Source: Gammaproteobacteria bacterium
Lineage (GTDB): Bacteria > Pseudomonadota > Gammaproteobacteria > Ga0077536
Direction of reading: 5' to 3'
Assembly: GCA_016209015.1 (NCBI GenBank)
Contig: JACQWY010000028.1
Coordinates: forward strand, 13,356-77,355
Length of the DNA: 64,000 bases
The notes under the pieces are model-generated. The model was not told where the DNA came from and did no database searches. It was given only the letters and a program-made list of their open reading frames with translations. Positions 2,857 to 64,000 of the stretch are shown piece by piece; within the stretch, counting starts at the first letter, position 1, and each line of letters begins with the position of its first letter. Position numbers and translations under genes: made by a program.

Positions 2857-3288
2857 ATGAGGTATGTAGGATTCGTCTTGTTCTTCGCGCTTTCGGCAAC
2901 AGCGGAAGCCGCATATTACAAGAAATCTTCGGAGCTGTTTCGCGAGTGCGCTTCAGAGGCGTCCGCTGATGCTGTTTCGTGCGTCTCATATGTGATTGCT
3001 GTAAACGACCTAGCGGAAGTGATGGCACACGCTGACACTGGCTCTAAACCGGCCTGGTGCGTACCTTCGGCGGTGACGGGAGGCGAACTACGCACAGCGG
3101 TGCTGCGCTATTACGGGGCTTACCCCGCCCGCGCCAATGGCGTCGCGGCCGCCGTGGTTGCGGATGCTTTAGCAGCCGCATATCCGTGTGGGGAGGCGGG
3201 CTCTCAAACGCTTATTCACAAAATGCTACACCCAGAAGACGAGCGGCCCGTGAAGCCACCGACGAGCCCAGTTCCCGAAGTTCGGTAA
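2857..3288 (+). CDS. secreted small protein (signal peptide MRYVGFVLFFALSATAEA) in a lower-GC islet
   Basis: classic n-h-c signal peptide; local AT enrichment 2733-3300. Confidence 0.5.
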   Translation: MRYVGFVLFFALSATAEAAYYKKSSELFRECASEASADAVSCVSYVIAVNDLAEVMAHADTGSKPAWCVPSAVTGGELRTAVLRYYGAYPARANGVAAAVVADALAAAYPCGEAGSQTLIHKMLHPEDERPVKPPTSPVPEVR

Positions 3289-6298: not shown

Positions 6299-7327
6299 TC
6301 ACTTTTCAGCCTCGGATCCTATCGTCGGTACCAGCGTCGGCTTGCGATCGTAGAGCGCGACCATGCGCTCAGTCGCGTGCCCGCTGAACTTCCGCTTATC
6401 ACCCTCGAAGTCTGAGATCCCCTTCGCCTTCAAATCGTGGAAAGTCCAGTCCACCGCGGCACCCTTCGGAGCCAGGTCCTCGCGCAGCCGCGCCCATGCT
6501 GACTCGAAGCCGTTCCGCGTGTAGCCGTTGCCCTTCTTGTTGCAGACCACGCGCGTCGCGCCGGCCGGCGCTTCGGCGCGGCACATCTCGATCGCCCCCT
6601 TCAGCCGAGGCGACCACGCCTTGATCTGCCGCTTCGCGGTTTTCCCCTGACGAATGTAGACGCCTTCCTCGCGGAGCTCGAACGTCGTGAGCTTCAGCAC
6701 GTCGGAGAGACGTGCCGCGCAGAGATACGCGATTTCCATCGCGGCCCGGATTGGTGTGCTCGCCGCGTTGAACACGGCCGCGTACTCGGCGTCCGTCACG
6801 TAGCGGTCGCGAGCGCGCTCCGAAAAGCGGTCGACACCTTCGCAGGGGTTGTGCTCGATATAGCCGCGCTGCAGGCCCCAGACACAGATCACGCTGAGCA
6901 GGGCAAGGTAGCGATTCGCCATCGTCGTGGTGCGCTTCCCGGTGCGTGCATTCAGCCGAGATCCGACCTTGTCGACGTACTGCCGGACGTGTGTCGTCTT
7001 CAGGGCGTTGCAGCGCATCTTGCCGAACACGGCGAGCAGCCCGACGCCGCCGGCGTCGCGCTGGCGCTCGTAGCTTTTGCGCGTCTCGAGGGCGAGGTCT
7101 TCGAAATTCGAGCTCGCGAAATAGGCCTTGATGAGATCGGCCATGGTGCCGCTCGTCGTGATCTCTGCGAGCACGCTCCGGTGCGCGGCCAGGACCTCGG
7201 CGCGACTCGCGGTGAGCGCAGCCAAGCGCACGGCGCCGCCTGTGCGCGGACGGAACTCGTAGGCAGACCGACCGCGGTAGACTCGCGGCGGCATCCATCT
7301 ATCTTCGGGCGGACGATTTCGGCCCAT
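6299..7327 (-). CDS. int: tyrosine-type phage integrase
   Basis: ~340 aa; C-terminal catalytic region (ARLSDV, HDLKAKG, MVALYDR); sits next to the tRNA-derived att; alternative start at 7294. Confidence 0.85.
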   Translation of the reverse strand: MGRNRPPEDRWMPPRVYRGRSAYEFRPRTGGAVRLAALTASRAEVLAAHRSVLAEITTSGTMADLIKAYFASSNFEDLALETRKSYERQRDAGGVGLLAVFGKMRCNALKTTHVRQYVDKVGSRLNARTGKRTTTMANRYLALLSVICVWGLQRGYIEHNPCEGVDRFSERARDRYVTDAEYAAVFNAASTPIRAAMEIAYLCAARLSDVLKLTTFELREEGVYIRQGKTAKRQIKAWSPRLKGAIEMCRAEAPAGATRVVCNKKGNGYTRNGFESAWARLREDLAPKGAAVDWTFHDLKAKGISDFEGDKRKFSGHATERMVALYDRKPTLVPTIGSEAEK

Positions 7328-41273: not shown

Positions 41274-41834
41274 ATGACAACCAAGAAGACGACCGCCCAC
41301 AAGGCGGGGCAGCGCCGCTCCCGAGCGGCCCAGCCCAAACGGGAGAAATCAGGGCGCCCGTCGAAGTATCGTCAAGAACTCGATGCCATCGCACACAAGA
41401 TGTGCCTGATGGGCGCGACTGACGCCGACCTCGCCGAGGCTTTCGACGTGTGCGAAGACACGATCAACGAATGGAAGAAGGTGCACCCGACATTCGCCAA
41501 GGAGCTGGAAAACGGCAAGACCTTTGCGGACGCCGAGATCGCGGCGGCGCTCTTCCATCGAGCGAAGGGATATTCGCACCCCGCGTTGCACTTCGCGAGC
41601 TTCGAGGGCGACATCTACAGCGAGGAATACACCGAGCATTACCCGCCCGACACCGCGGCGTGCAGGTTCTGGCTGATGAATCGCCAGCGTTCGAAGTGGC
41701 GCGAGAAGATCGACGTCGAGCACGGCGGCAAGGATGGCGCCCCGCTGACCTCGGCGGAGTACAAGATTGACGCGAACACCAACCCCGAAGAAGCAGCGCG
41801 CAAGTACAAAGCCTTCCTCGAACACTGCCGCTGA
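41274..41834 (+). CDS. terminase small subunit
   Basis: basic N-terminus, HTH-like region; directly precedes the large subunit. Confidence 0.55.
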   Translation: MTTKKTTAHKAGQRRSRAAQPKREKSGRPSKYRQELDAIAHKMCLMGATDADLAEAFDVCEDTINEWKKVHPTFAKELENGKTFADAEIAAALFHRAKGYSHPALHFASFEGDIYSEEYTEHYPPDTAACRFWLMNRQRSKWREKIDVEHGGKDGAPLTSAEYKIDANTNPEEAARKYKAFLEHCR

Positions 41835-43506
41835 GGCGCCGTTCGATTTCAGGAATCCGGACTACACGGCCGTCTTCGCGGCGCGGATGCGAAAACTCGA
41901 GGCGATCCAGAAGAACCCCGAGTTCGGAGTGGACCTGAAGAAGCACTACCGGCACGCGCCATGGGATCTCATCAGCGATTGGGGGATGACCTTCGAGCCC
42001 CGCAATCTCGAGCTCGGGCTCATCACGGCGATCCCGTTCGTGCTCTGGAAGCGACAGCGCGAGTACCTGCAATGGCTGCACACGCGCTGGAAGCGGCGCG
42101 AGCGCGGGCTCGTCGAGAAGTCCCGCGACTGCGGAGTGACCTGGCTAACGGTCGGCTTTGGCGTTGCGATGTGGATCGCCGAGGACGGTTTCCTCGCGGG
42201 CTTCGGAAGCCGCAAGGAAGAACTCGTCGATAAGCGCGGCGACGATAAAAGCATCTTCGAGAAGATCCGATTCTTCATAGACAACCTGCCGCCGTTCCTC
42301 CAGCCGGCGGCGATGAATCGCAAGAACGACTGGTCGCATCTCAGAATCTCGAACTCGGACAACGGGTCGGCGCTGATCGGAGAGGCCGGAGACCAGATCG
42401 GCCGCGGAGGGCGAGCTTCCATCTATTTCGTGGACGAGGCGGCGTTCGTCGAGCACCAGCTCACCGTCGACGCCGCGCTCTCCCAGACGACGAACTGCCA
42501 GATCGACATCTCGACGCCGAACGGCAGCGGCAACGCCTTCTACAAGAAGCGTCTCAGGTTCAACAATACCGATCGCATCTTCATCTTCGACTGGCGGGAC
42601 GACCCCCGCAAAGATCAGGCGTGGTACGACCGGCAGGTAGAGGAACAGGACGAAGTGACGGTCGCCCAAGAAATCGATCGCGACTACAACGCCTCGAAAG
42701 AAGACTCGTTCATCCCGGCGAAGTGGGTCGCGGCGGCCGTCGATGCGCATATCCGGCTGGGGTTCCGCAGCGAGGGTATCAAGGTCACGTCGTTCGACCC
42801 GGCCGACACTGGCGACGCGCGCTCAGTCGTCAATCGCTACGGCTCGGTCGTGCTCGAGGCCGAGCAGATGACGAAAGGAAACATCACGAACGCGATCCCG
42901 TGGGCCGTCGAGCACGGCGTGAACCATCGCGCCGACGTATTCATCTTCGACGGAGACGGACTCGGAACGCCGACCATCAAGATGGCGCTTCAGGTCCCGG
43001 CGCTGCGCGCCAGGATCCGGCTCTCGCGGATGAACATCCTCGTGTTTCGCGGCTCGGGAGCCGTGCAGAACCCCGGGCAGCCGGCTGGCAAGCGCACGCA
43101 CAAGGAGAGTGAGGCACTGAAGTCAAACATCGACACGTACCTGAACTTCCGGGCGCAGGCCTGGAGTTGGGTACGAGCGCGCTTCGAGAAGACCTTCGAT
43201 GCGGTCGAGGCGGCGCGCGCCGGCAAAATCGTGCGCGCGGATCCCGAAGATCTGATCAGCATTAATTCGAAGTGCGCGCACATGCAGGAGCTCGTGGCCG
43301 AGCTCTCACGCCCGCTGCGCATCTATTCGGCCAACGGGAAAATCCAGGTCGAGAGCAAGGAGTCCATGAAGAAGCGCGAGATCATGAGCCCGAACCTCGC
43401 CGATGCCCTCGTGATGGCGTTCTCGGTCAGCGCCCCCTCGGCACCGACGACCGGCGGAATCAAAACCCAGGAATTCGCGCCCCTCGATCCGTCGATGGGC
43501 TATTAG
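41767..43506 (+). CDS. terminase large subunit (start uncertain: 41767 or 41887)
   Basis: ATPase Walker-B-like IYFVDEAAF; C-terminal nuclease-like region; size and position. Confidence 0.7.
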   Translation: MTRTPTPKKQRASTKPSSNTAAEAPFDFRNPDYTAVFAARMRKLEAIQKNPEFGVDLKKHYRHAPWDLISDWGMTFEPRNLELGLITAIPFVLWKRQREYLQWLHTRWKRRERGLVEKSRDCGVTWLTVGFGVAMWIAEDGFLAGFGSRKEELVDKRGDDKSIFEKIRFFIDNLPPFLQPAAMNRKNDWSHLRISNSDNGSALIGEAGDQIGRGGRASIYFVDEAAFVEHQLTVDAALSQTTNCQIDISTPNGSGNAFYKKRLRFNNTDRIFIFDWRDDPRKDQAWYDRQVEEQDEVTVAQEIDRDYNASKEDSFIPAKWVAAAVDAHIRLGFRSEGIKVTSFDPADTGDARSVVNRYGSVVLEAEQMTKGNITNAIPWAVEHGVNHRADVFIFDGDGLGTPTIKMALQVPALRARIRLSRMNILVFRGSGAVQNPGQPAGKRTHKESEALKSNIDTYLNFRAQAWSWVRARFEKTFDAVEAARAGKIVRADPEDLISINSKCAHMQELVAELSRPLRIYSANGKIQVESKESMKKREIMSPNLADALVMAFSVSAPSAPTTGGIKTQEFAPLDPSMGY

Positions 43507-43799: not shown

Positions 43800-45875
43800 A
43801 TGCAAAGCGCGGTGACCTCCGTAGTCGGCGACACGCCCGAAGAACAGGACGGTTACAGTCGGCTCGACGCGTTCGGCATGGAAATCGCGAAGTACCGCAA
43901 GGAGGCCGTGGACGGCCGCGTCCAAATCGGGATCGAAGAGGAATGGCTCGAGGACGAAGAGGCCTATGTCGGCATCGACGCCGCGAACCGCGGCGAACAT
44001 CTCTCGACGTGGCGTCACCTGAAGCCGAGCAAGAAGGTTTTCTCGACGGCGAACTCGAGCACCGCCGACCCGACGCGCAGCACCGCGCTCGTCAACATCA
44101 CGCGGCCCTACTGCGACGCCGCGGCCGCCCGCGTCGCCGACATGCTGCTCCCGAACGACGATCGGTGCTGGGGCCTCGACTGCACGCCGTTGCCTGACCT
44201 CGCCGAGCAGGCCCAGCCGGACGTCGCCGTGATCGTCGCCGACGCCTCCGGTGGCCAGATGGAGGTCAGCCACAAGGTCTTCATGGATGCGGTAGTCACC
44301 GCAGCCAAGGCGCGCATGGAGCGTGCCGAGACCCAGATCGAGGACTGGCTCGGCGAGACGAAATGGTCGGCGGAGTGCCGCGTCGTCATCGAAGACACGG
44401 CGAAGCTCGGCACCGGCGTACTCAAGGGGCCCTACCCGAAGGCGAAGCGCAAGGTCCGGTTCAACTACCAGGACGGTCAGAGCGCCATCGCCTTCGAGTC
44501 GAAGACCGTACCGCACTCACGGCGTGTCGATGTCTGGAATTGCTTCCCGGACCCCTCGTGCGGCGAGAACATCCAGGACGGCGCCTACTTCTTCGAGCGC
44601 GACGAGATCACGCTGCGCAAGCTGCTCGCGCTCAAGACCGAGCCCGGCTACATCGCGGCGCAGATCGAGGCCTGTGCTCAGGAAGGCCCGATCGGCTACG
44701 AGGTCAACTGGACGCCCTCGATCGCTCAGGAGCGCACGGCAGGCCTCCGCCAGACGAAGTACGAGATCTGGTATTTCTACGGCATGGTCGAGCGCGACGC
44801 GCTCATCGCCTCCGGCCTCATCCCCGAGCAGCTCACCGAGGATTACTACTCGGCGGTCGTCACGATGGTGAATCACCGTGTCGTCAAGGCGGCCATCATG
44901 CCGCTCGAGGACGGGTCATTCCCCTACGATTTCATGGTGTGGCAGCGCCGACCTGGGCTGCCCTACGGGATCGGTGTCTCGCGTCAGATCCGAATTCCCC
45001 AGCGTATGCTGACCGCGGCGATCCGCAATCTCATGGACAACGCGGCGCTTTCGGCCGGGCCTCAGATCATCATCGACACGACGAAGATCGTGCCGGCGAA
45101 CGGCAAGATGGAGCTCGTGCCGCGAAAGGTCTGGATCGCGAAGACCGGCGACGACGTCTCCGAGATCGACGTCGAGAAGGCGTTCACGATCGTCCACATC
45201 GAGACGCGACAGCCGGAACTCATGAACATCATCGAGTTCTCGTTGCGGATGGCCGAGGAATCGACCGGGCTCCCGATGATCCTGCAGGGCCAGCTCGGCG
45301 AGCAGAACCCACAGACGCTCGGCCAGCAGCAGATGTTGCAGAACAACGCGAGTTCGGTGCTGCGCCGTCTCGCCAAGCTCTGGGACGACCGGGTCACGGT
45401 CCCCCATCTCACGCGCTACTACCACTGGCTGATGGAGTACGGCGACGACGACGTCAAAGGCGACTTCGAAGTCATCGCGCACGGCTCGTCGACGCTCGTC
45501 GAGCGCGACATCCAGAACCAGGGCATCGCGCTACTCATGGATCTCAGTTGGAAGGCGCCGGCGCTCGGCCTAGATCCCGAGAAGACTACCGAGGAATACA
45601 TCCGGTCACAGCATCTCGCGCCGGCCCGCTTCACGAAGGACGAGCAGCAGAAGGAGGCCGAAGCCGAAGCGCAGCCCGAGCAGCCGCAGGATCCGAGCAT
45701 CACGGCCGCCGCGATCACTGCTGATGCTCAGCTCCAGAAGCAGACCGCGGCGAACCAGGACCGCCAAGCAGAGCGCGATCAGCGCTGGCAAGAAAAGCTC
45801 CTCGATAAGAACACCGAAGTCGCGCTCTACAACGCCGAACAGGCTCTAAAGGAGACCGAGGGTTCAGGCGTATGA
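43800..45875 (+). CDS. portal protein
   Basis: 691 aa; position between terminase and scaffold; acidic C-terminus. Confidence 0.65.
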   Translation: MQSAVTSVVGDTPEEQDGYSRLDAFGMEIAKYRKEAVDGRVQIGIEEEWLEDEEAYVGIDAANRGEHLSTWRHLKPSKKVFSTANSSTADPTRSTALVNITRPYCDAAAARVADMLLPNDDRCWGLDCTPLPDLAEQAQPDVAVIVADASGGQMEVSHKVFMDAVVTAAKARMERAETQIEDWLGETKWSAECRVVIEDTAKLGTGVLKGPYPKAKRKVRFNYQDGQSAIAFESKTVPHSRRVDVWNCFPDPSCGENIQDGAYFFERDEITLRKLLALKTEPGYIAAQIEACAQEGPIGYEVNWTPSIAQERTAGLRQTKYEIWYFYGMVERDALIASGLIPEQLTEDYYSAVVTMVNHRVVKAAIMPLEDGSFPYDFMVWQRRPGLPYGIGVSRQIRIPQRMLTAAIRNLMDNAALSAGPQIIIDTTKIVPANGKMELVPRKVWIAKTGDDVSEIDVEKAFTIVHIETRQPELMNIIEFSLRMAEESTGLPMILQGQLGEQNPQTLGQQQMLQNNASSVLRRLAKLWDDRVTVPHLTRYYHWLMEYGDDDVKGDFEVIAHGSSTLVERDIQNQGIALLMDLSWKAPALGLDPEKTTEEYIRSQHLAPARFTKDEQQKEAEAEAQPEQPQDPSITAAAITADAQLQKQTAANQDRQAERDQRWQEKLLDKNTEVALYNAEQALKETEGSGV

Positions 45876-47021: not shown

Positions 47022-48059
47022 ATGCAGACGTATCAAGCTACTTCCCAGCGAATCGGCAAGCTCAAGGGTGAGCTGCTCGCGCACGCGATGCACAAGGAAG
47101 TCATGGGCATCACCGGCCAGCAGAAGAAGATGCCGGGGGGCGGCGGCGACACCATCATCTACCGTCGCTGGCTGCCGTTCGGCGCATCGATCACCGATTT
47201 CAACACCATCAACCGCCCCGCCGCCGTCGCGGCCGCGCACATCCTCGAGGAAGGCGTGACGCCGACCCCGGACACGATGACCCCGCAGGATGTCAGCGTC
47301 GCCATGCAGCAGTACGGCTGCCTCTACGAGTTCAGCGACAAGCTCGTCGATCTCAACGAGGACGACGTGCCGGCGCAGATGAAGCAGCAGGTCGGCGAGC
47401 GCATGGGTCTCGTGCGCGAGATGATCCGCTACGGCATCCTCAAGGCGGGCACCAACGCCTACTACGCCGGTGGCTCGTCGCGCTCCACGGTCGCCGCGGC
47501 GGTTACGCTGAACTTGCTCCGCAAGATTACGCGCAACCTCAAGTCGAACCACGCCAACATGATCACGCAGGTGCTCGCCCCGTCGACGAACTTCGCGACG
47601 ACGCCGGTCGAGGCCGCGTGGCTCGTGTTCTGCCACTCCGACTGCGAGGCCGACATCCGCGAGCTCCCTGGCTTCAAGCACACGGCCGAGTACGGTACGC
47701 GCAAGCCCGTCCACGATCTCGAGATCGGCTCGTGCGAGTCGTTCCGGTTCGTCATGTCGCCGGAGCTCGCGCCCTATGCGCACGCCGGCGCGGCGGTCGG
47801 CACGACGGGCCTCTACTCGAGCAACGCCACGAACATCGACGTCTACCCGATGATCGTCGTCGCCGAGGACGCGTGGGGCCAGGTCGCGCTGCGCGGCGTC
47901 AACTCCATCGATCCGACCTACATCCCGGTCGGCCAGAAGGACAAGACCGATCCGCTCGGCCAGCGTGGCTACGCGGGCGCGAAGTTCTATCAGGCGGCGG
48001 TCATTCTCAACCAGGGGTGGATGGCGGTCGCGGAAGTCGGGATCACCGATCTGGGCTGA
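47022..48059 (+). CDS. major capsid protein
   Basis: 345 aa after the scaffold; followed by a strong hairpin terminator. Confidence 0.65.
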   Translation: MQTYQATSQRIGKLKGELLAHAMHKEVMGITGQQKKMPGGGGDTIIYRRWLPFGASITDFNTINRPAAVAAAHILEEGVTPTPDTMTPQDVSVAMQQYGCLYEFSDKLVDLNEDDVPAQMKQQVGERMGLVREMIRYGILKAGTNAYYAGGSSRSTVAAAVTLNLLRKITRNLKSNHANMITQVLAPSTNFATTPVEAAWLVFCHSDCEADIRELPGFKHTAEYGTRKPVHDLEIGSCESFRFVMSPELAPYAHAGAAVGTTGLYSSNATNIDVYPMIVVAEDAWGQVALRGVNSIDPTYIPVGQKDKTDPLGQRGYAGAKFYQAAVILNQGWMAVAEVGITDLG

Positions 48060-52822: not shown

Positions 52823-54448
52823 ATGTCCGGAGCCGCCTGGAATCCATCCGACAAGCATTCGTCAATCACCCTGACGAATGCAAATCGGACGGCCGAGAAC
52901 ACGTCCGGGCTCAGTGGGATCCGATCGGTACGTGCCGATCAGTTCATGTCGTCCGGGAAGTTCTATTTCGAGTTCGTCGTCGATCAGGCGGGCGCGGGGT
53001 CTCCCGAGTGGTACGCGGGTATCGACGACGGCACGCTGAACCTGGCGAACGTCCTCGGCAGTACGGCAGGCGGCTACGGTATTCGGGGTTGGACCGGGCA
53101 GAAGATCCACAACGGCAGCACGACGGCGTACGGCTCGGCGTTCGCGACGGGCGACGTCGTTGGCGTGGCCGTCGACTTCTCGGCCGGAGCGATCTGGTTC
53201 TCGAAGAACGGCACGTGGTTCAACAGCGCGACGATCTCCGAAATCCAGGCGGGCACGACGACGCACGCCGCCTACACGGGGATCTCCGGCTCGTTCACGC
53301 CGGCATGGTCGGCGAACGACTCGACGACGGCGCCCAAGACCACGCTGCGCACCGAGGCCGCGCAGCTCACGGGTAGCGTACCGTCCGGCTTCACGGCCGG
53401 CTGGCCGCTTCCGACGCACGGTGACGGCGCGGCGGGCATCCCGGTCGCGGCCGCCGGCACGGGCAACGTGCAGCCGGTCCACGTCACCGGCGGAGCGGGG
53501 GTGCCACTGGCGATTGTGGCGACCGGCTACGTACTGCCGATCCATGGCGATGCCGCGCTCACGGTGCCGCTCGCGCCGAGCGGCACGGCCTCGCTGCCCG
53601 GCAAGGGCCAGGGCGCTGTCACGCTGATGCCGAGCCTCGTGGCGACCGGCGCGGTATCTCGCGCAGGATCCACCGACGCCGCCATGGAGGGCCCCGAGGC
53701 GCTGCTCTTCGGTGTCATCAGCATCGGCGGAACGGTAGATGCCGCGCTCGGCGTGCTCGGCGCGGCCTGTGAGGCCACCATCCCGGTGACAGGCGGCATC
53801 GATGCCGAGCTCGGCGCCCTCGAGGCCGAGGCGAGCGGGGTTGTGACGGTCGTCGGCGTGATCAGCACGGCGCTCGGCGCGCTCGAGCCCGCGCTCGTCG
53901 GCTACGTTCCGATCACCGGCACGCTCGCCACGGAGCTCGCGGTCCTCGGCGCGTATCTGGTCGCCGACTGCGGAGATTCAGAGACTTGGCGCGTGGTCGT
54001 GATGAACCTCAAGCACGGCGGGATCAGCGAGTACGAGAGCTATCCCATGAATTCGATCGTCGAGTGGAACGGCACGTACTACGGTGCCGACGATTCTGGG
54101 ATCTACACGCTCGCCGGCGAGTTCGACGTCGCAGCCGACATCGATGCCGTGATCCGCACGGCCCGCCACGATTTCGGAACCGACATCACGAAGCGCGTCT
54201 CGGACGTCTACGTGCAGTGCAAGTCGGCCAAGAAACTCGTGCTCCGAATGCGGGACGGCGATCGGATCTGGGAATACCCGGTCCCCTCGGACGCTTACCC
54301 GGGCTTCGAATCCGTGAAGGTCGACACGGGCCGCGGGCTGCGCGTCCGCTACCACGAGTTCGAGCTCGCGAACTTCGAGGGCGCGGATTTCGAGACCGAC
54401 GGGTTCGACCTCGTCATCACGCCGATCGAGCGCCGCCGCAAGCGATGA
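52823..54448 (+). CDS. tail fibre/host-specificity protein with an N-terminal SPRY-like domain
   Basis: GKFYFEFVVD...GW.G...GDVVGVAVDFSAGAIWFSKNG; Gly/Ala-rich C-terminus. Confidence 0.5.
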   Translation: MSGAAWNPSDKHSSITLTNANRTAENTSGLSGIRSVRADQFMSSGKFYFEFVVDQAGAGSPEWYAGIDDGTLNLANVLGSTAGGYGIRGWTGQKIHNGSTTAYGSAFATGDVVGVAVDFSAGAIWFSKNGTWFNSATISEIQAGTTTHAAYTGISGSFTPAWSANDSTTAPKTTLRTEAAQLTGSVPSGFTAGWPLPTHGDGAAGIPVAAAGTGNVQPVHVTGGAGVPLAIVATGYVLPIHGDAALTVPLAPSGTASLPGKGQGAVTLMPSLVATGAVSRAGSTDAAMEGPEALLFGVISIGGTVDAALGVLGAACEATIPVTGGIDAELGALEAEASGVVTVVGVISTALGALEPALVGYVPITGTLATELAVLGAYLVADCGDSETWRVVVMNLKHGGISEYESYPMNSIVEWNGTYYGADDSGIYTLAGEFDVAADIDAVIRTARHDFGTDITKRVSDVYVQCKSAKKLVLRMRDGDRIWEYPVPSDAYPGFESVKVDTGRGLRVRYHEFELANFEGADFETDGFDLVITPIERRRKR

Positions 54449-55704: not shown

Positions 55705-56739
55705 ATGACCGACGCCACTTCGCTGATCTCCGACGCGCAAGCCTACGCCGACAGCAAAGACAACGATGCGCGGGCCTTCATCAACAAGCTCGCCGACGCG
55801 GCGAACGTGATCTACGACGGGGTGGTGGGCGACGTCGAGGCCTACCACGTGCCGATCACGGCCGCCGAAACGATGATCGACGACCTCGCCATCACCTTCC
55901 CAGAAATTCCTACCATCGTCGTGCCCGGCTACACCGTGCCGGCCGTCCCGACCATCTCCTTCACGCCCATCATCCACGACATCACGCTGCTCGAGGCCGC
56001 GCGCTCCAAGCTGCTCGGCGATCTCCAGGCCGGTGGGTACGGCATCGATGTCAATGACGAAACCCAGCTTCTCGATCGCGAGCGCGAGCGCATCGTCGCC
56101 GAGGCCCAGCAGACCGCCGACTCCGTCGAAGTCGCGTTCGCGACCCGCCGCTTCAGCGAGCCCCCGGGCACGATGTTCGGCGCCATGTCGCGCATGAAGG
56201 AGTCGATCCGCGAAGCCGTCCAGCTCGCGAGCCGCAACATCTACATCCAGCGCGCGACGCAGTTCTTTCAGGCCAGGCAGTTCGCCGTCCAGACCGCGGC
56301 GACCCTCGATCGCACGCGCGCCGACATCATCGAGATCCAGTTCCAGATCGAAGAGGCCCGCGCGCGTTTCGCGCTCGCGCTGTTCCAATCCCAGCTCGAG
56401 CAGTTCAAGACCCAGCTCTCGGCGGCGATCGACAAGGCGAGCCTCGCCGTTCGGATCTACGAGGCGCAGGCCACGATGGTCGACGCGCGCGCCCGGATCT
56501 CCACCCAGAAAGCGCAGGTCTTCATCGCCGAGTACCAAGCCAACGTGCAGGCATTCCTCGGCGTCATGGAGATCCGCCTGCGCAACGCTCAGAACAAGCT
56601 CGCCGCCGCGACCGCGACGGGCGACGCACGCCGCGACGCCGCGAAAGCCGGCGCCGATTTCTATTCGACGCTGGTCGCCGGCGCCCTCGGCGCGGTGAAC
56701 ACCATGGTCAGCCAGTCCGCACAGGAGACCACTGCATGA
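55705..56739 (+). CDS. internal virion/ejection-type protein (344 aa)
   Basis: helical, Ala/Gln-rich; position before the giant protein. Confidence 0.4.
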   Translation: MTDATSLISDAQAYADSKDNDARAFINKLADAANVIYDGVVGDVEAYHVPITAAETMIDDLAITFPEIPTIVVPGYTVPAVPTISFTPIIHDITLLEAARSKLLGDLQAGGYGIDVNDETQLLDRERERIVAEAQQTADSVEVAFATRRFSEPPGTMFGAMSRMKESIREAVQLASRNIYIQRATQFFQARQFAVQTAATLDRTRADIIEIQFQIEEARARFALALFQSQLEQFKTQLSAAIDKASLAVRIYEAQATMVDARARISTQKAQVFIAEYQANVQAFLGVMEIRLRNAQNKLAAATATGDARRDAAKAGADFYSTLVAGALGAVNTMVSQSAQETTA

Positions 56740-58190
56740 GACCCACGATCTACGTGAATTCCGAGGGGGGCGCGGACAACGCGCCGCCGTACGTCCGCGA
56801 CGCCATCACGAGCCTCCAGCAGCGCGCGAGCGCGCAGCGTTCCGCGGCCGCCGCCGTGCAGCCCACCGCGGCGCCGGGCTCCTACGCGAATCCCCTGCAG
56901 GGCCAGGACCAGACGTCGATCATGGGCCGCGTGAAAGCGGCCGCCGGGATCCCGGGGCCGGGCGCCGCACCCGAGACGGGGAACGCCGGTGTGCCGCAGC
57001 CGCCGCAGCCGCCGCAGCCCGGCGTCAACGGCAGCGCGCCGGCGCCGAAGGGCATCATCGGCAAGGTGGCCGGCGCGGCAGGCCGCGTCTCGCGCTCGCC
57101 GGTCGGCCGCTACGTCGCACCCATCGCGGGGGCCGCGCAGGCGATTCACGGGCTCGCGGACGTCGCGGGCGGTGATACCGTCAATGGCGTCGAGAACACC
57201 GTGCTCGGCGGCCTCACTGCCATCCCGGCGACAGCGCCGGCCGGCATCATCGGCAACGTCCTGAAGACGGCGCGCGATGCCGCGCTCGGCTGGGGCGCCC
57301 AGAAGTACGTCGACGCAACGACGCCCCCGAACTCGGGCTCGCGCATCGTCGGACCCGCGCTCGCGGCCCAGCTCAACGGCAAGACGCCCGAGCGGGCACT
57401 CATCGACGCCGGTCATCGGGCCGCCCCTGGACAGCCCCAGAAACCGACGGAGAGCACGCCTGCGCCGATTTCGGCCCCTGCCGCACCGAGCCCCGCGTCG
57501 CTCGTCGATAATGGCGCCTACGTGCCTCCGCGGGGCACCGGCATCATTCGGAACAACGGCACCGGGGCGATCACCGAGATCAACGGATCCCCGGCCCCGG
57601 AGCAGGTCGCCCAGGCGCCCTCCGACATCGGTCGTCGCGAGCCCGTGAACGTCCCGAACGCGGCGCTCGCCACCGACATCGATACGCTGCCGCAGTTCTT
57701 GCAGGGAGCCTCGGAGGCCGGTCAGGCGCTCGTCAATAACAAGCAGCAGGCCGCGAAGGAGGCGGGGCTCATCCGCCGCGCGAAAGCGGGCCAGGAATAC
57801 CAGAAGGGCGAGACCGAGCTCGGTGCGCAGCAGCGCCTCGATCACGTGCTCGAGCAGCTTACCCAGCTCAACGACCAGAACGATCCGCAGGGCGCGAAGC
57901 GTGCCGAGCTCCAGAACACCGCGCTCACGCTCCGCGGCCACGTCCCGACGACGTCCGACACCCCCGAAGATCGCTACCGCAACACGCTCACGAAAGGCGT
58001 GCTGCCGGCGGCGCTCGACGAGAAGGGGCGCACCGATGCGCTCAAGTGGGTGGATCAGCAGATGGCCGACTACCGGGAGCGCCGCTCCGGCCGTGCGGCC
58101 GCGCCGCAGTACGAAGAGGGCAAGGTCTACGTCGACGGGAAAGGAAATCGCGCGAAGTACCAGAACGGGCAGTGGGTGGCGGCAGCGTGA
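56736..58190 (+). CDS. internal virion/ejection-type protein (484 aa), Pro/Gly/Ala-rich
   Basis: low-complexity PQPPQPPQPG region; coupled. Confidence 0.4.
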   Translation: MRPTIYVNSEGGADNAPPYVRDAITSLQQRASAQRSAAAAVQPTAAPGSYANPLQGQDQTSIMGRVKAAAGIPGPGAAPETGNAGVPQPPQPPQPGVNGSAPAPKGIIGKVAGAAGRVSRSPVGRYVAPIAGAAQAIHGLADVAGGDTVNGVENTVLGGLTAIPATAPAGIIGNVLKTARDAALGWGAQKYVDATTPPNSGSRIVGPALAAQLNGKTPERALIDAGHRAAPGQPQKPTESTPAPISAPAAPSPASLVDNGAYVPPRGTGIIRNNGTGAITEINGSPAPEQVAQAPSDIGRREPVNVPNAALATDIDTLPQFLQGASEAGQALVNNKQQAAKEAGLIRRAKAGQEYQKGETELGAQQRLDHVLEQLTQLNDQNDPQGAKRAELQNTALTLRGHVPTTSDTPEDRYRNTLTKGVLPAALDEKGRTDALKWVDQQMADYRERRSGRAAAPQYEEGKVYVDGKGNRAKYQNGQWVAAA

Positions 58191-61100
58191 TCAACTTCGA
58201 CCCGTCTACCGCACGTCTCGAGGCCGCGCCGGCTGCCGGCGGTTTCGACCCGTCCACGGCGCAGCTCGCGCCCGAGCCCGAGAAGCCCGGCATCATCGCG
58301 CGCGCGGCCGGCGCCGCGGGGTCCGCGGGCCGCGGGCTGCTCGACACCGCAAAGGCCGACGTCGGCAAGATCACCGAGGCGGTGGCGCCGGCTGCGCCCG
58401 CTCCGGTCGCGACGCCGACGCCAGCCCCGGCGCCGGCTCCCCTGCCGGCTGCCGCGCCGGCGCCGAACTTCCGTCCCGAGACCGCGAAGCCCGCCCCCGA
58501 GCCGCAGCAACCCGGCACCGGCGGGATCGGCAGCGAATTCGTGCAGGGGTTCAAGGCGGGTGTCGGTGGTCAGAACGCCTCGATGCTCGGCGGCGCCCTC
58601 GAGGCCGGCGGCATCATCGCGCGCAACCGCGCGCCCGGCATGGCGAAGGCTGCGATCGACGCCGGCCAGAAGCTCCAGGACTGGGGCACCGAGCACACGC
58701 CGACGCCGCAGGTCGGCAGCATCACGGACGTCCCGGGTGACGGCATCCTGGACACCGCGGAGCGCGCCGCGAAGTACGCGGCATTCCAGGCGGGCTCGGG
58801 CATCGGCACGTCAGCACCCTCGCTCGTCGCCGGCACCGCGGCCGGGCTCGCCACCGAGAATCCGCTCGTCGGCTTCCTCGCAGGCGCCGTCGGGCCCTCG
58901 TACCTCCAGAATCTCGGCGACGTCTACACGAGCGCGAAATCCGATCCGGACATCTCGAAAGCGCTCTCGAGCGGCCATCTCACGCCAGAGCAGATCGCGC
59001 GTACCTCGGCGCTCGCCGCCGTGCCGATCGCGGCGCTCGACGCGCTCTCGCTCGAAAACGTGCTCCACAACGCGTTCAAGCCGGCGAAGGACGAGCTCGC
59101 GAAACGGATCCTCAAGGGCATCGCCACCGGCGCGATTACCGAGGGCTCGACCGAAGGCCTGCAGGACGTCGTCTCGCAGTGGGCACAATCCACGCTCGGC
59201 CAGCACAAGGAACTCAAGGACCGCGTGGTCGAAGTCGTCGACAACGCACTCGGAGGCGTGTTCTCTGGCGGTCTGATGGGTGGCGTCAGCGGAGTGCGCG
59301 GTCATCCGAACGAGCCCCCGCCGGCTCCCGGCGGTGCCGCCTACGTGCCGCGTGAAGGCGAAGTCATCCCGGGCGCGCCGCCCGGCACCGCACGGGTCGC
59401 CGCGCCCCAGCCGGCGGGGATGCCGGCCGTCCCCGGCGTGCCGCCAGGTGCGCCGCCCGCCGGCCCCGCGCTCACGCCGCCGCGCACCGCGCCGACCCGC
59501 GTCGACCCCGCGCACATCATGGACGCGACCCAGCGCGGCATTCTCATCCCGGTGCAGCAGCCCGGAGGCATGATCTCGCGCGCTCGTGCGCAGCAGAAGA
59601 CGGCGGAGGGAACTCACCAGCCCGACGCGCCGGCGCCGGGCATGGTTCGCATGTACCACGGCGGAAGCGTAGAAGCGGGCGTTGATGGTCCCCGCTGGTT
59701 CTCCAGCAACAAGAACTATGCACAGCAATACGCTGAGAGAGTGGGCGCGGGGAAACATCTCTATTACGTCGACATTCCGGAAAGTCATCCATCCGTGGCT
59801 CCCGATGAATTCAATCCGGAGCAGTCGATCAAGAATGGATTTACGGTGAATACAGAGTTGCCCGAAGAGATCGCGAGGAACGCAAAGCCGCTATCTTCGG
59901 TCGACGAGTCTCTCACCAACGTCCCCGCACAACCCGCCGCCCCAGCCCAAGAGAAAGGGACAGTAGCGACCGCTAGTGTCCATTCCCCGGAGGCCTTCAC
60001 CCCCACCCACGAACTCCCCGACGGCACCCCGGTCCGCGCCACGGAGGAGCCGCACGTCTACACCGACGCCGCCGGCACCGAGATCGAAGACCGCAACGCC
60101 AAGCCGTTCGCGGCCGAGCGCATCGCCGCGGCAGCCGCGCAGGCTGCGACCTCCCCGGACAACGCCCTGGCCGAGCCGACCGACGGACAGAAGGCAGCCG
60201 GCAACTATCAGAAAGGACATGTCAACCTGCACGGGCTTGACATCGCGATCGAGAACCCGGCGGGTTCGAAGCGCACCGGGGTCGGCGAGAACGGCAAGCC
60301 GTGGTCCGTGGAGATGTCGGCGCACTACGGCTACCTGAAGCAGACCGAGGGTGCCGATGGCGATCAGGTCGACGTCTACCTGACCGACCACGCGGGAGAT
60401 GCGAATCGCCCGGTCTACGTCTTCGATCAAGTCAGCAAAGACGGGACCTTCGACGAGCACAAGGCCGTGCTGGGCGCCGCAGATCAGACCGAGGCCGAGA
60501 AGCTCTACGACGCGCACTTCAGCGACGGCAGCGGCCCGAAGCGCCGTGCCGCGGTCACGGAGATGAGCATCGCCGAGTTCAAGGACTGGGCGCGCGGGGA
60601 CACGCGGGCGCCTGTCGTCAACGTCGCCACTGGCGAGGAGCACATCCCAACGCGGAAGACGGATTCCACGATCTCGCCGACTCAAACCGAGAAAACCGAC
60701 GAAACCAACAAACCGGCCACGAAACCGTTCGAGCATGGCCCGCGGCAGAATCGCAATCAGGGACAAGTCTTCACGTTCTCTCAGGACATCGCGCATGACA
60801 TTCGACGCGGCGCGAGGCCGGTCAATGACCTGCATCGGAAGCCGACCGGCTGGCTCATGAGTGACGGCGATCGTGGCGTCGTCCTTATCCACCCTCACGA
60901 AGACTCGGGGCTCGTGTTTCGCTTCGACGAGAAGAGCGGTACCGACCACATGCGCGCCCGTGCTCGAGCGCAGGTCTATGCGATCGATAACCGAATCGAA
61001 GGTGGAACGTCGGCGGCCGAGCCAGCGATGGAAGAGCCGAAGTCCGAGGCGCCGCGCGAGCGCTGGAAGAGTTTCACTGTCTCCCCGGCGGCGGACCCCT

Positions 61101-64000
61101 CGTGGTACGTAGTTCGTGAGCCGAGTGCTGGGCAGAGCAGCGCAGCGCAGAACCTCGCGCGGTTTAAGATTCGTGACGACGGTCGCCTCGGGAAGGTGGA
61201 CCATTTCTTCGAGTCGTCGCAGACGCGCGAGCCGGTCGAAAAGGCGATCCGAAGATTTGTCGATTCCCAGAAGCAAGGTCAGGCCGCGCCCGCGAAAGAG
61301 CAGCCGAAGGCCGCGCCTAAGCCGGCACCAGAATCAGTGAAGAAGGACGAGCCGAAAGCCGCCCCGAAACCAGCGCCCGTCGTATCGGCCAACACCATCG
61401 TCACCGACGACACCGCGGAGGCTGCTCGCAAACTGCTCCGCTCCAAGCTCGGGCAACTCAATACCGGCATCGATCCCGAAGTGTTGCAGGCCGGCATCAC
61501 GCTGGCCGTCTACCACATCGAGCGCGGCGCCCGGACGTTCGCGGCCTATGCGAAGGCGATGATCGGGGACCTGGGCGACCTCGTGCGGCCGTACCTCAAA
61601 AGCTGGTACATGGCCGCGAAGTACGATCCCCGCACCACCGACGAACTCCGCGCGGCCATGAGCCCGGCGGACGAGATCGATGCGATCGACGCGTCGGCTA
61701 TACTTAGGGCAGAGGAACCCACCGATGGAATTCAGAACGGCCTACCTGAACGCGATGCGGGATCACAGTCCGCGCGAGTTCAATCAACTGACGCGGAGCG
61801 GCCAGATGGAGGCGCACCTGCAGGAGAAGACGCAGGAGGCGTACCGGATGCTGGACGAGCACTTGGCGAACGTGCCCCGCGCGGCAAACGGGGCGCCACG
61901 CGACGCGCGCGCGGTGAGCGAAGCGGAGAGGATAGTGCTGGACACGCTGATCGACTTCCCACCCGCAGCAACTTCCGAATCGAGCCCGGCGGCCTAGAAG
62001 AGGACCGCGGCTGGACGCAGAAGGCGCGCGATAACGTCCGCGCCATCGAACTACTCCAGGAAATCGAATCTGAGGGCCGCGCGGCCACCCCTGAAGAGCA
62101 GAAGGCGCTCAGCCTGTACGTTGGCTGGGGCGGCATGCCGGGTGTGTTCCCGGTCAAGGAAGGCGACTACGGAAAGGGCTTCGAGAAGGTTGGAGCGCGC
62201 GTGCGCGAACTCCTGACCGACGAGGAATATGACGCCGCCAGCCGCAGCACCCAGTACGCCCACTACACGAGCGAGCGCATCATCCGCTCCATGTGGGATC
62301 TCGCGCAGCGCCTGGGCTTCCGTGGCGGCGCGATATTCGAGCCCGGCATGGGCGTCGGACACTTCGCTGGCCTCATCCCGGCCGACGTCGACCCCGGCAC
62401 CATGTACCAAGGTCTCGAGATGGACCCGACCTCGGCGCGCATCGCCAAGCTGCTCTACCCGAAGTTCGGTGTCCGGCTCGAGGACTTCACGAAGGCGCCG
62501 CTGCCCGAGAACGCATTCGACCTCGTGATCGGCAATCCGCCGTTCGCCGACATCCCGATCAAGGCCGATCCGAAGTACGCGACGCACGGCTTCCTGTTGC
62601 ATGACTACTTCTTCGCGAAGAGCCTCGATGCCGTCAGGCCCGGAGGCCTCCTGATGTTCATCTCGTCGGCAGGCACGATGAACAAGCAGGACACGAAGGC
62701 GCGCGAGTGGATGGCGAAGCGGGCGGATCTCATCGGCGCGGTGCGCCTGCCCTCGAACGCGTTCAAGCAGAACGCTGGCACCGAGGTCACGACTGACATT
62801 CTCGTGTTTCGGAAGCGCCGCCCCGGCGAAGCGATTCGGGTGAATAGCTCTGGCCGCTGGTTGACCCAGACGAACGACGCCGGAGAGGCTGTCGGCTCCC
62901 CGGTTCTTGAAGACGCGCCGGAATGGGTCGACGTGTCCGAGATCACGCTGCCGAACAAGGACGGCGTACCCACCACGGGCTACTCGAATCAGTATTTCGT
63001 CGAGCATCCCGAGATGGTGCTCGGAGAGCAAGGTTTCTTCGACAAGCTCTATCAGGGGCGCTACGCCGTGCACGCGACGCCCGGCGCCGATCTGGCCGCG
63101 CAGCTCCGCGAAGCGCTCGGCCGGTTCCCGTCCCAGGTGATGTCGGACTGGACCACGACGCACAGCCACGACGATCTCGACTTCGCGAGCGGCGAGCGCA
63201 AGGAGGGCAGCTACTACCTCGACAAGGACGGTCGCCTCATGCAATTCACGGGCGGCGTAGGCCGCGCGGTGGAACGCCGCGGCAAAGGCGTGGAGGGCGG
63301 CAAGTCCAAAGACGAGCTCGACCGCATTCGCGCGCTCATCCCGATGCGCGACGCGCTGCGCGCCGTCTATGCCGCGGATCTCGGCGGGCAAGCCGAGAAG
63401 GCCACGGCGGCACGCGCTGCACTGAACAAGGCTTACGACAAATTCGTCGCCGAGTTCGGTCCCATCAATCAGGCGGAATTCAGCTACCGCCGTCCGAACA
63501 GGGTCCAGGCAGAGAGCGCACGCGCGGAGGCGCGCGAGGAAGCACGCTCAGCCGGGCTGCCGTTCGATGAGGGTTCGTTCGATCCGACGCGCATGGTCAA
63601 GGCGGGCGCCACACTCGCGGCCATCGGGAAGGCGCGCGCGGAGGCGCGCGAAGCCGCGCTCACCGCCGGCGAGGAATGGCGCGAGGGCAGCTTCGACCCC
63701 GAGGACATGCCGGACATCGTCATCGAGAAGCGGCCGAACATCGATCCGTTCATCGACGACCAGGAGTCCTACCGCCTGCGCGCGATCGAGCGCTACGACG
63801 AGGCGACCGGCAAGGCGACCAAGGGTCTCGTGTTCTCCGAGAGCACGCTCGCCCGCGAGCGCAAGCCCACCATCAACAGCGTCGGTGACGCTCTGTTCCA
63901 CGTCCTCAACGTCCAGGGCTATCCGGACATCGACGCGATCGCCGAGGCCGCGGGGAAATCTCCGACCGAAGTACTGTCCGAGCTCGGCAATTCGCTGTTC
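58187..64000 (+). CDS. giant virion 'polyvalent' protein (>1,938 aa, 3' end beyond the window) with an N6-adenine DNA methyltransferase domain; DarB-like injected anti-restriction candidate
   Basis: frame open from the GTG at 58187 to the window edge (missing from the ORF track because it has no stop inside the window); motif I FEPGMGVGHF (~62340), motif IV VIGNPPFAD (62534-62545); low-GC insert 59640-59900 with ART-like R/S motifs. Confidence 0.65.
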   Translation, partial: MINFDPSTARLEAAPAAGGFDPSTAQLAPEPEKPGIIARAAGAAGSAGRGLLDTAKADVGKITEAVAPAAPAPVATPTPAPAPAPLPAAAPAPNFRPETAKPAPEPQQPGTGGIGSEFVQGFKAGVGGQNASMLGGALEAGGIIARNRAPGMAKAAIDAGQKLQDWGTEHTPTPQVGSITDVPGDGILDTAERAAKYAAFQAGSGIGTSAPSLVAGTAAGLATENPLVGFLAGAVGPSYLQNLGDVYTSAKSDPDISKALSSGHLTPEQIARTSALAAVPIAALDALSLENVLHNAFKPAKDELAKRILKGIATGAITEGSTEGLQDVVSQWAQSTLGQHKELKDRVVEVVDNALGGVFSGGLMGGVSGVRGHPNEPPPAPGGAAYVPREGEVIPGAPPGTARVAAPQPAGMPAVPGVPPGAPPAGPALTPPRTAPTRVDPAHIMDATQRGILIPVQQPGGMISRARAQQKTAEGTHQPDAPAPGMVRMYHGGSVEAGVDGPRWFSSNKNYAQQYAERVGAGKHLYYVDIPESHPSVAPDEFNPEQSIKNGFTVNTELPEEIARNAKPLSSVDESLTNVPAQPAAPAQEKGTVATASVHSPEAFTPTHELPDGTPVRATEEPHVYTDAAGTEIEDRNAKPFAAERIAAAAAQAATSPDNALAEPTDGQKAAGNYQKGHVNLHGLDIAIENPAGSKRTGVGENGKPWSVEMSAHYGYLKQTEGADGDQVDVYLTDHAGDANRPVYVFDQVSKDGTFDEHKAVLGAADQTEAEKLYDAHFSDGSGPKRRAAVTEMSIAEFKDWARGDTRAPVVNVATGEEHIPTRKTDSTISPTQTEKTDETNKPATKPFEHGPRQNRNQGQVFTFSQDIAHDIRRGARPVNDLHRKPTGWLMSDGDRGVVLIHPHEDSGLVFRFDEKSGTDHMRARARAQVYAIDNRIEGGTSAAEPAMEEPKSEAPRERWKSFTVSPAADPSWYVVREPSAGQSSAAQNLARFKIRDDGRLGKVDHFFESSQTREPVEKAIRRFVDSQKQGQAAPAKEQPKAAPKPAPESVKKDEPKAAPKPAPVVSANTIVTDDTAEAARKLLRSKLGQLNTGIDPEVLQAGITLAVYHIERGARTFAAYAKAMIGDLGDLVRPYLKSWYMAAKYDPRTTDELRAAMSPADEIDAIDASAILRAEEPTDGIQNGLPERDAGSQSARVQSTDAERPDGGAPAGEDAGGVPDAGRALGERAPRGKRGATRRARGERSGEDSAGHADRLPTRSNFRIEPGGLEEDRGWTQKARDNVRAIELLQEIESEGRAATPEEQKALSLYVGWGGMPGVFPVKEGDYGKGFEKVGARVRELLTDEEYDAASRSTQYAHYTSERIIRSMWDLAQRLGFRGGAIFEPGMGVGHFAGLIPADVDPGTMYQGLEMDPTSARIAKLLYPKFGVRLEDFTKAPLPENAFDLVIGNPPFADIPIKADPKYATHGFLLHDYFFAKSLDAVRPGGLLMFISSAGTMNKQDTKAREWMAKRADLIGAVRLPSNAFKQNAGTEVTTDILVFRKRRPGEAIRVNSSGRWLTQTNDAGEAVGSPVLEDAPEWVDVSEITLPNKDGVPTTGYSNQYFVEHPEMVLGEQGFFDKLYQGRYAVHATPGADLAAQLREALGRFPSQVMSDWTTTHSHDDLDFASGERKEGSYYLDKDGRLMQFTGGVGRAVERRGKGVEGGKSKDELDRIRALIPMRDALRAVYAADLGGQAEKATAARAALNKAYDKFVAEFGPINQAEFSYRRPNRVQAESARAEAREEARSAGLPFDEGSFDPTRMVKAGATLAAIGKARAEAREAALTAGEEWREGSFDPEDMPDIVIEKRPNIDPFIDDQESYRLRAIERYDEATGKATKGLVFSESTLARERKPTINSVGDALFHVLNVQGYPDIDAIAEAAGKSPTEVLSELGNSLF
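61725..61997 (+). CDS. embedded alternative-frame ORF (90 aa, MEFRTAYLNAMRDH...) with its own RBS inside the giant gene; status uncertain
   Basis: GAGGAA 7 nt upstream of the ATG; local third-position GC is high in this frame and low in the giant-gene frame; ends at TAG exactly where giant-frame codon usage recovers. Confidence 0.25.
   Translation: MEFRTAYLNAMRDHSPREFNQLTRSGQMEAHLQEKTQEAYRMLDEHLANVPRAANGAPRDARAVSEAERIVLDTLIDFPPAATSESSPAA

Follow-up and report, generated by a model that had tools for sequence, protein, structure and literature searches.

The DarB protein of phage P1 is a head component which is co-ejected with the DNA and provides cis protection against EcoB/EcoK (PMC5512222, PMC12810830). 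A survey of polyvalent proteins described InPase, ADP-ribosyltransferase (ART) and LPD38 as phage-type domains of proteins for which packaging and injection are predicted, reported a dyad of methyltransferase (MTase) and helicase with an N-terminal TP helix, and identified the zincin peptidase MPTase as the top-ranked hub in the domain network of these proteins (Iyer, Burroughs, Anand, de Souza and Aravind 2017; PMC5512222). In CsCl-purified virions of phage JC1, the 4,515-residue protein gp69 was detected by 51 unique peptides (PMC9144972). Here we describe a homologue of JC1 gp69, encoded at the end of a 64,000-nucleotide stretch of a gammaproteobacterial contig (JACQWY010000028.1, positions 13,356 to 77,355 of the forward strand). 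This whole stretch is referred to as the window.

With high confidence, the locus covers 41%, counted from the 5' end, of the gene for a DarB-like polyvalent effector of 4,701 residues; this is a late gene of a podovirus-like element, either a temperate phage or a prophage. The assignment to the class of polyvalent, DarB-like giants is secure. By analogy with its relatives, the protein is probably packed into the virion and injected with the DNA against host defences. Within the reach of our searches, two of its features are new: a mini ART-like domain, widespread and without an above-threshold Pfam match, and a conserved TnpV-like gene nested in the +1 frame directly before the MTase.

A continuous reading frame and its full-length product

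The two genes concerned overlap on the same strand.

56736-58190, + strand, upstream gene of 484 codons, its TGA overlapping the GTG of the giant gene
58187-64000, + strand, N-terminal part of the giant gene, without stop codons, identical to protein P0059 and matching phrog_10089

From the GTG at 58187 the frame was free of stops over 1,938 codons up to the end of the window at 64000; the preceding in-frame stop is located at 57737-57739. The remaining five frames contain 24, 31, 9, 48 and 65 stops over the same region. Base composition predicts 43, and the probability of finding none is about 2e-19. The GC content at third codon positions (GC3) amounts to 0.81 overall, similar to the values for the portal gene (0.87) and the major head gene (0.92) of the same window, and the frame is therefore considered as coding. 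These data confirm the original prediction, made from the letters of the window, of a frame open for more than 5.8 kb from a GTG overlapping the upstream gene and running off the window. Neither a stop nor a frameshift splits it into ordinary-sized genes. Its absence from the list of open reading frames (ORFs) had correctly been ascribed to the want of a stop inside the window, as the list tool omits ORFs that cross the end of the source. The start and the upstream stop overlap as GTGA, an arrangement which suggests translational coupling of the giant gene to the upstream gene. The same GTG was also used by two independent gene calls, those of Logan contig L001 and of protein P0059.

P0059 was retrieved when the low-GC segment treated below served as query in an exhaustive HMMER search. 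It comprises 4,701 residues, and its residues 1-1938 are 100% identical to the translation of the window, which thus holds the 5' 41% of the gene; about 8.3 kb more are expected past the end of the window. No match to the source contig beyond the window was obtained by scanning IMG/VR, the GTDB genomes and JGI metagenomes for exact 60-mers, and the sole contig found with the upstream gene, L001, stops within the giant gene. An identical piece of 10.2 kb is contained in SRR12113406. From the N- to the C-terminus, the following parts were distinguished in P0059.

58778-59302, + strand, residues ~198-372, N-terminal Gly/Ala-rich module (phrog_10089, phrog_2206)
59639-59896, + strand, residues 485-570, mini ART-like domain, the low-GC insert of the original prediction
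60185-60592, + strand, residues 667-802, InPase domain, type I inorganic-pyrophosphatase-like, polyvalent clade (Pfam PF18823)
60650-61280, + strand, residues ~822-1031, unassigned region with two apparently folded stretches
61295-61696, + strand, residues 1037-1170, helical domain before the MTase cassette (phrog_10089, phrog_938)
61725-61997, + strand, nested +1-frame gene of 90 codons over main-frame residues ~1180-1270, the putative dual-coding linker, with a TnpV-like four-helix product
62033-62839, + strand, N6-adenine DNA MTase module (Pfam Eco57I / N6_Mtase at residues ~1385-1546, phrog_11801, alignment with P1 DarB, motifs)
62840-64000, + strand, residues 1552-1938, conserved region between MTase and helicase, matching P0001 (E = 3e-50), L004 and L008
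residues 2149-2273, beyond the window, ResIII/DEAD (Pfam)
residues 2389-2478, beyond the window, SNF2-related, weak (Pfam)
residues 2640-2703, beyond the window, Helicase_C (Pfam)
best copy at residues 3477-3618, beyond the window, three tandem copies of ART-PolyVal (Pfam, 256 bits in total)
residues 4406-4596, beyond the window, LPD38 (Pfam)

The helicase, which had been suspected downstream of the window, is of the SF2 (SWI2/SNF2) type and fused C-terminally to the MTase; it begins at about residue 2149 of P0059 and was found there at the protein level only (ResIII/DEAD, weak SNF2-related, Helicase_C). Similarities of P0059 to DISARM DrmD and MADS-type defence proteins among the NCBIfam models were far below threshold and represent generic likeness to superfamily 2 (SF2) helicases and MTases; an identity as such a defence protein was rejected. 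Directly before the three ART-PolyVal copies, at residues ~3130-3150, P0059 carries the sequence LLHEIGVHYG, an HExxxH and not a classical HExxH motif. The segment that contains HEIGVH, conceivably a divergent processing peptidase, matched no family at E <= 10.

Class assignment and phage context

The fragment encoded in the window matched phrog_10089, annotated as 'DarB-like antirestriction', with E = 2.8e-273. Three of its parts, residues 198-372, 1037-1170 and 1188-1938, align with this profile of 4,647 positions. In a tblastn search of 50,697 phage records, the best matches were the giant 'DarB-like' genes of POI1126, PBC5, Atu_ph08, Ralstonia phages and the Bcep22-like phages DC1, JC1 and CSP3, with approximately 40% identity over at most about half of the fragment. 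The hosts of these phages are Ochrobactrum (POI1126), Sinorhizobium (PBC5), Agrobacterium (Atu_ph08) and Burkholderia (DC1, JC1, CSP3). In DC1 (gp67, 4,650 codons) and POI1126 (gp30, ~4,840 codons) the giant gene is a single ORF which closes the virion module and is followed by lysis genes; by analogy, a lysis cassette would also be expected after the giant gene of the window.

A comparable setting was observed in the window, where the homologues of terminase, portal, major head and head-closure or internal virion proteins are all located upstream of the giant gene and on the same strand.

6299-7327, - strand, tyrosine integrase
41767-43506, + strand, large terminase
43800-45875, + strand, portal
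47022-48059, + strand, major head protein

The gene was thus rightly predicted to be of the giant, virion-type polyvalent kind: it closes a virion module of the podovirus type and encodes at least two effector domains in one polypeptide. The integrase gene indicates that the element is temperate, either a phage or a prophage.

Two observations concern other genes of the element. Between 14 kb and 41 kb, several ORFs exceed 400 codons and have no PHROG family. A 541-codon gene of the virion module (52823-54448, + strand) showed a SPRY match (PF00622), obtained on the identical L001, together with matches to 'virion structural protein' PHROGs; its product may be a receptor-binding or decoration protein.

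The methyltransferase-helicase core

The motifs of an N6-adenine MTase named in the original prediction were all located in the frame. Motif I (FxGxG) reads FEPGMGVGHF at residues 1384-1393 (62336-62365) and precedes motif IV (NPPF), which reads VIGNPPFAD at residues 1447-1455 (62525-62551). The conserved lead-in corresponds to the TP helix N-terminal to the MTase core, TPEEQKALSLYVGWGG at residues 1301-1316 (62087-62134); the helix with the TP motif, ATPEEQKALSLYVGWGG at residues 1300-1316, is kept in L004, L005 and L008. Pfam recognized Eco57I (E = 1.5e-7) and N6_Mtase (E = 3.7e-4), and phrog_11801, 'DNA methyltransferase', matched with E = 3.5e-67. In BLASTP comparisons P1 DarB itself aligned with the MTase of P0059 (31% identity, DarB residues 91-278, E = 4e-21) as well as with the N-terminal (E = 4e-13) and C-terminal (E = 2e-14) halves of the helicase, in conserved order. 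The proposed P1 DarB-like architecture therefore holds for the MTase and both halves of the helicase.

A low-GC mini-domain with a probable ART-like core

An AT-richer segment had been noted at 59640-59900 as an ART-like insert with motifs reminiscent of ADP-ribosyltransferase or Alt-like domains. The GC content was indeed 0.54 at 59640-59879 in comparison to ~0.65-0.80 on the flanks. The concomitant drop in GC3, 0.57-0.62 in the mini-domain against 0.81-0.88 in the neighbouring domains, rules out that the dip results from mere amino-acid composition and marks the patch as compositionally foreign. A diverged relative on L008 lacks the mini-domain and carries a different N-terminal domain set, which agrees with recent shuffling. 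By composition the mini-domain is probably a foreign module that was shuffled in recently.

Exhaustive HMMER searches assigned 247 protein clusters to the mini-domain family at E <= 1e-3. Most of the members are large proteins of several domains (median length ~1,280 residues), and the mini-domain is usually preceded by a Pro-rich linker. The partner domains in 39 members included ART-PolyVal (6), LPD38 (3), LPD22 (3), TrwC relaxase, portal, PBECR5, SLT and GNAT; judged from these annotations, the partner set is the repertoire of polyvalent proteins. None of the Pfam, PHROG or PDB sequences covered the mini-domain above threshold, and a word-indexed homology search gave no match even at E <= 10. 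Within the family R488, H491, A512, D529 and P531 are conserved to 98-99%, Y490, W504 and Y527 to 90-95% and E557 to 80%. The motifs R-x-Y-H-G-[GS] of strand 1 and W-[FVL]-[ST]-[ST] of strand 2 are reminiscent of ART signatures.

The single family to which the mini-domain could be linked by sequence was ART-PolyVal. Our own ART-PolyVal profile reached E = 0.025 in a single test, a weak score, and a profile-profile comparison with hhalign yielded P = 1.3e-4 and a probability of 54%. The mini-domain remained below the Pfam cutoff of ART-PolyVal (PF18760; 13.3 bits vs 31.2), and our own profile did not match the whole 1,938-residue fragment, the weak match being obtained with the isolated segment only. 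All three matches are limited to the YHG...[YW]F...YA half of the mini-domain. Scans of the segment against Pfam and PHROG revealed no match to ART families of the Alt/VIP2 type. An AlphaFold model based on a 61-sequence alignment showed four strands and two helices with a predicted local distance difference test (pLDDT) of 89.3 and a predicted template modelling score (pTM) of 0.82, and the model has structural neighbours of the ART fold. An ART-like core is thus likely. Of the initial interpretation, a discrete domain with an ART-like predicted core was retained, but the tie to Alt found no counterpart in sequence.

A probable nested gene in the +1 frame

The Pro/Ala-rich linkers that had been described between the parts of the protein were recovered in part: residues 61-110 passed the threshold and those at ~380-470 and 1005-1030 were visible, but residues ~1180-1270 coincide with a probable overprinted gene. 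In the frame plot of 61640-61955 the GC maximum was shifted from codon position 3 to position 1 (0.85-0.93), and the GC3 of the main frame decreased to 0.35-0.5. Such inverted windows were rare. Among 476 in-frame windows across eight genes six were inverted, all of them at 61640-61955. The main-frame linker is rich in Gly, Ala, Arg, Asp and Glu, and its synonymous codons are atypical, with GGA for 8 of 15 Gly and GAT for 7 of 11 Asp; the inversion is therefore not only a matter of this amino-acid composition. A further low-GC foreign patch was rejected as well, as the total GC is normal, the phase alone is shifted and the +1 frame is typical of the genome.

The +1 frame is open at 61662-61997 between two stops, with GC contents of ~0.65/0.42/0.90 at the three codon positions. 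Its ATG at 61725 lies seven bases past AGAGGAA (61711-61717), which is a likely Shine-Dalgarno sequence of the nested gene. Neither a stop nor a frameshift occurs in the main frame at this site, so that the giant ORF remains unbroken.

Homologues of the nested product, P0209 and P0210 (85 and 84 residues, 74% and 67% identity), were called as separate genes on L005 and L004. On both contigs the MTase frame is open through the small ORF, and its periodicity is normal outside and inverted inside the latter. The metagenome contigs L007 and L008 (GC 0.59) encode an 87-residue homologue of 43% identity, likewise in the +1 frame and with GGAG upstream; there the nested ORF lies inside a frame which is open for at least 3,738 codons and whose product is 54% identical to P0059 residues 1013-2991. 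An AGGA 7-8 nt before the nested ATG is kept among the relatives despite differing flanks. An AlphaFold 2 model of the nested product, built from 3 sequences, is a four-helix fold with a pLDDT of 81.5. TnpV (PF14198) was the top weak match for four of four nested homologues (best E = 1.9e-5; window copy 17.7 bits vs a cutoff of 27). The product matched no PHROG or NCBIfam family and no BFVD fold significantly, and the literature on TnpV was uninformative on function. Searches for the nested ORF with tblastn in the 50,697 phage records and in plasmids, and searches of IMG/VR and GTDB genomes, gave no match.

On the short contigs L004 and L005, automatic gene calling annotated the nested ORF and placed the start of the MTase gene at an ATG further inside, which left the giant read-through frame unannotated. 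Similar mis-annotation is likely wherever the cassette of nested ORF and MTase occurs.

Alternative explanations

A stop-free run of 1,938 codons, compared to 9-65 stops in the other frames (P ~2e-19), is difficult to reconcile with the view that the giant ORF is an artefact in which ordinary genes are seemingly fused, be it through rare stops in GC-rich DNA or through assembly and frameshift errors, and in which the inversion reflects a compensated double frameshift. This view takes its support from the linker itself, where GC3 drops to 0.35-0.5, the GC maximum occupies codon position 1 over ~300 nt and the +1 frame is open exactly at the inversion; by our estimate, off-frame stretches of ~90 codons are also often open in DNA of 65% GC. 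On either side of the anomaly the GC3 periodicity is normal, however, and at the corresponding position of four other contigs the long frame likewise stays open, in one of them for at least 3,738 codons at 59% GC. Homologous single ORFs of 4,515-4,842 codons exist in isolated phages, one of them confirmed by virion proteomics. The +1 stretch lies between two stops, possesses an ATG and a Shine-Dalgarno sequence of its own and is under purifying selection, the sole indel among the relatives measures 3 nt, and none of the related giant proteins contains an in-frame homologue of the +1 peptide. A compensated double frameshift at the linker was rejected, being largely refuted by the open frames in the relatives, the selection on the +1 frame and the lack of in-frame homologues, and an artefactual giant ORF is very improbable.

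With the frame accepted as real, the nested ORF might be a relic of a small TnpV-like gene that once stood between two genes and was fused with them by read-through, its frame not yet decayed. Such a history would suit a product whose function is unassigned, with four homologous loci found, and for which annotated phages, plasmids, IMG/VR and GTDB genomes gave no match; the skew of variable sites by codon position alone is also modest (P = 0.06). The pattern of substitutions points in the other direction. Inside the small ORF they peak at the wobble position of the +1 frame, downstream at that of the main frame. The ratio of non-synonymous to synonymous substitution rates (dN/dS) in the overlap was 0.32-0.46 for the +1 frame and 0.90-1.34, thus close to 1, for the main frame, the reverse of the MTase lead-in downstream (1.15-1.62 and 0.16-0.36, respectively). 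The BLOSUM score of the +1 frame exceeded that of the main frame (174 vs 139), the predicted fold is confident for an alignment of 3 sequences (pLDDT 81.5), and start codon, length, Shine-Dalgarno-like motif and frame are kept across lineages whose giants are 54% identical and whose GC contents differ (0.59 vs 0.65). At the largest divergence, that of L007 and L008, the identities in the two frames are similar (43% vs 44%). This similarity is compatible with a relic and, on the other hand, suggests true dual coding. We consider the relic rather unlikely and lean slightly towards true dual coding of 61725-61997, in which the giant protein is read through as a flexible linker and an internal start yields a TnpV-like partner of the MTase-helicase cassette. 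For the mini-domain the choice is between an enzyme and a non-catalytic binding or adaptor module, e.g. a sensor of NAD+ or ADP-ribose or a docking domain, with a partial ART-like beta-alpha-beta core. Compared to the ART triads (H-Y-[EDQ] or R-S-E), strand 1 provides both R488 and H491, strand 2 contains W504-F505-[ST]-[ST] and no Tyr, and D529 and E557 are candidate acids. Catalytic activity, judged on this predicted core, is doubtful, and it is unlikely that the ~85 residues constitute the smallest active type of ADP-ribosyltransferase known; a non-catalytic module is a reasonable alternative, though we stop short of favouring it.

InPase, N-terminal module and remaining parts

InPase, which gave the best Pfam match of the window (E = 1.3e-46, 158.3 bits vs a cutoff of 26.8, model positions 2-134 of 135), had been missed in the original prediction. 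Its sole solved sequence relative is the C-terminus of the portal protein gp19 (PDB 9b41_L, residues 636-761, E = 3e-18), a location which fits an InPase travelling in capsids. For structural work on the InPase clade found in polyvalent proteins, the C-terminal domain of 9b41_L also provides a template.

The N-terminal module extends over about residues 100-380 and contains Gly/Ala hydrophobic stretches. It aligned with phrog_10089 positions 385-571 (E = 5e-14) and weakly with positions 225-414, in the N-terminal part, of phrog_2206, 'virion RNA polymerase' (E = 1.4e-6; N4-like families), and residues 100-460 matched P0002, P0003 and P0007-P0009 with E = 1e-46 to 1e-54. From these matches we infer a role of the module in capsid incorporation or ejection. 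Further upstream, within the first 25 residues of the protein, the short motif FDPSTA[RQ]L is duplicated (58196-58213, 58244-58261). In place of this pair, the diverged relative on L008 begins with three NPFE[DN]D repeats. These N-terminal repeats may be short docking or targeting signals of giant virion proteins.

Residues ~806-1030 matched no Pfam or PHROG family and none of the 58 relatives. With a somewhat low GC3 over this region (0.73-0.74), residues ~822-1031 may be another shuffled-in module. The helical domain that follows (phrog_10089 positions 1227-1349, E = 1.4e-46; also phrog_938) is common to the DarB-like giants, and in L005 and L008 its homologue precedes the nested ORF. It may correspond to LPD36 of Iyer et al.

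Proposed role

The giant protein would be produced together with head and tail proteins, be packed in the capsid and leave it with the DNA at infection; the candidate part for its incorporation or ejection is the N-terminal module. As has been proposed for P1 DarB, the pair of MTase and helicase could then move along the entering DNA and protect it in cis from type I restriction, by methylation or by shielding. The ART domains may modify host targets at the expense of NAD+, and InPase may remove pyrophosphate or a nucleotide-like signal. The TnpV-like protein probably uses a ribosome-binding site of its own for translation and accompanies the MTase-helicase cassette; it may act, for example, as an assembly factor or keep a dangerous enzyme in check while it is still inside the producing cell. 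By analogy with its relatives, the protein presumably has antirestriction activity.

Several points weigh against this reading. The Pfam scores of the MTase are close to the cutoffs (Eco57I 32.1 vs 25.3, N6_Mtase 20.4 vs 20.4), unlike the strong alignments with PHROG and DarB. The upstream gene matched no PHROG family, and its earlier label 'ejection protein' is unverified. The 3' 59% of the giant gene is known from the protein P0059 alone, with no DNA contig. No Pfam peptidase match that could represent the processing peptidase MPTase was obtained in P0059 at E <= 0.1, and none of the partners of P1 DarB (DarA, Hdf, DdrA/B, Ulx) was identified, although no search was aimed at them. Packaging and ejection of the window protein are deduced from gene context and from the proteomics of a homologue.

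Giant injected proteins occupy about one fifth of some phage genomes, and as multi-enzyme proteins they are among the least understood counter-defence tools of phages. The concept itself, known since P1 DarB, Bcep22 gp75 and the polyvalent-protein survey of 2017, is little extended by the present locus, which will not surprise the specialist. The mini-domain of ~85 residues, with its 247 clusters, is an easy target for expression and NAD+ chemistry and offers a case of recent domain shuffling within a giant gene that is visible in GC3. The nested gene upstream of the MTase, which may function together with DarB-like modules, is missed by annotation pipelines or called at the cost of the giant gene. 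Frame-plot inversions within very long ORFs of GC-rich phages therefore merit inspection.

Comparison with known systems

P1 DarB (2,255 residues) is collinear with P0059 over the MTase and both halves of the SF2 helicase at a low identity of 22-31%, and its gene, like the window gene, adjoins or sits within virion genes. The window protein is about twice as long, with an N-terminal module, the mini ART-like domain, InPase, three ART-PolyVal copies and LPD38 in addition, and its gene belongs to a podovirus-type module, whereas DarB is found in a P1-like myovirus. T4 Alt, of the R-S-E clade, shares the concept of a capsid-borne ART that enters the cell together with the DNA and modifies host proteins. 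A sequence relationship to Alt was not found; the mini-domain is linked by sequence to the ART-PolyVal family only, and the true ARTs of P0059 are the H-Y-D-type ART-PolyVal copies beyond the window.

With the polyvalent proteins (PMC5512222) the window protein has in common that many effector domains are combined in a single polypeptide and that its gene stands among those for packaging and virion proteins, and P0059 comprises the dyad with TP helix, InPase, ART-PolyVal of the H-Y-D type and LPD38. It differs in that MPTase, which we do not take as obligatory, was not detected, in that the mini ART-like domain lies outside the Pfam polyvalent models (LPD, ART-PolyVal) above threshold, and in the dual-coding linker; TnpV is absent from the text of that paper. 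The closest match in PHROG family, gene position and size is to the Bcep22-like giants (Bcep22 gp75, DC1 gp67, JC1 gp69, POI1126 gp30, and those of PBC5 and the Ralstonia phages), which share the N-terminal module, the helical domain and the MTase-helicase core. The giants of DC1 and CSP3 carry an annotated lytic transglycosylase domain that was not found in the window protein, whereas the mini ART-like domain and residues ~806-1030 of the window protein have no counterpart in the Bcep22-like giants.

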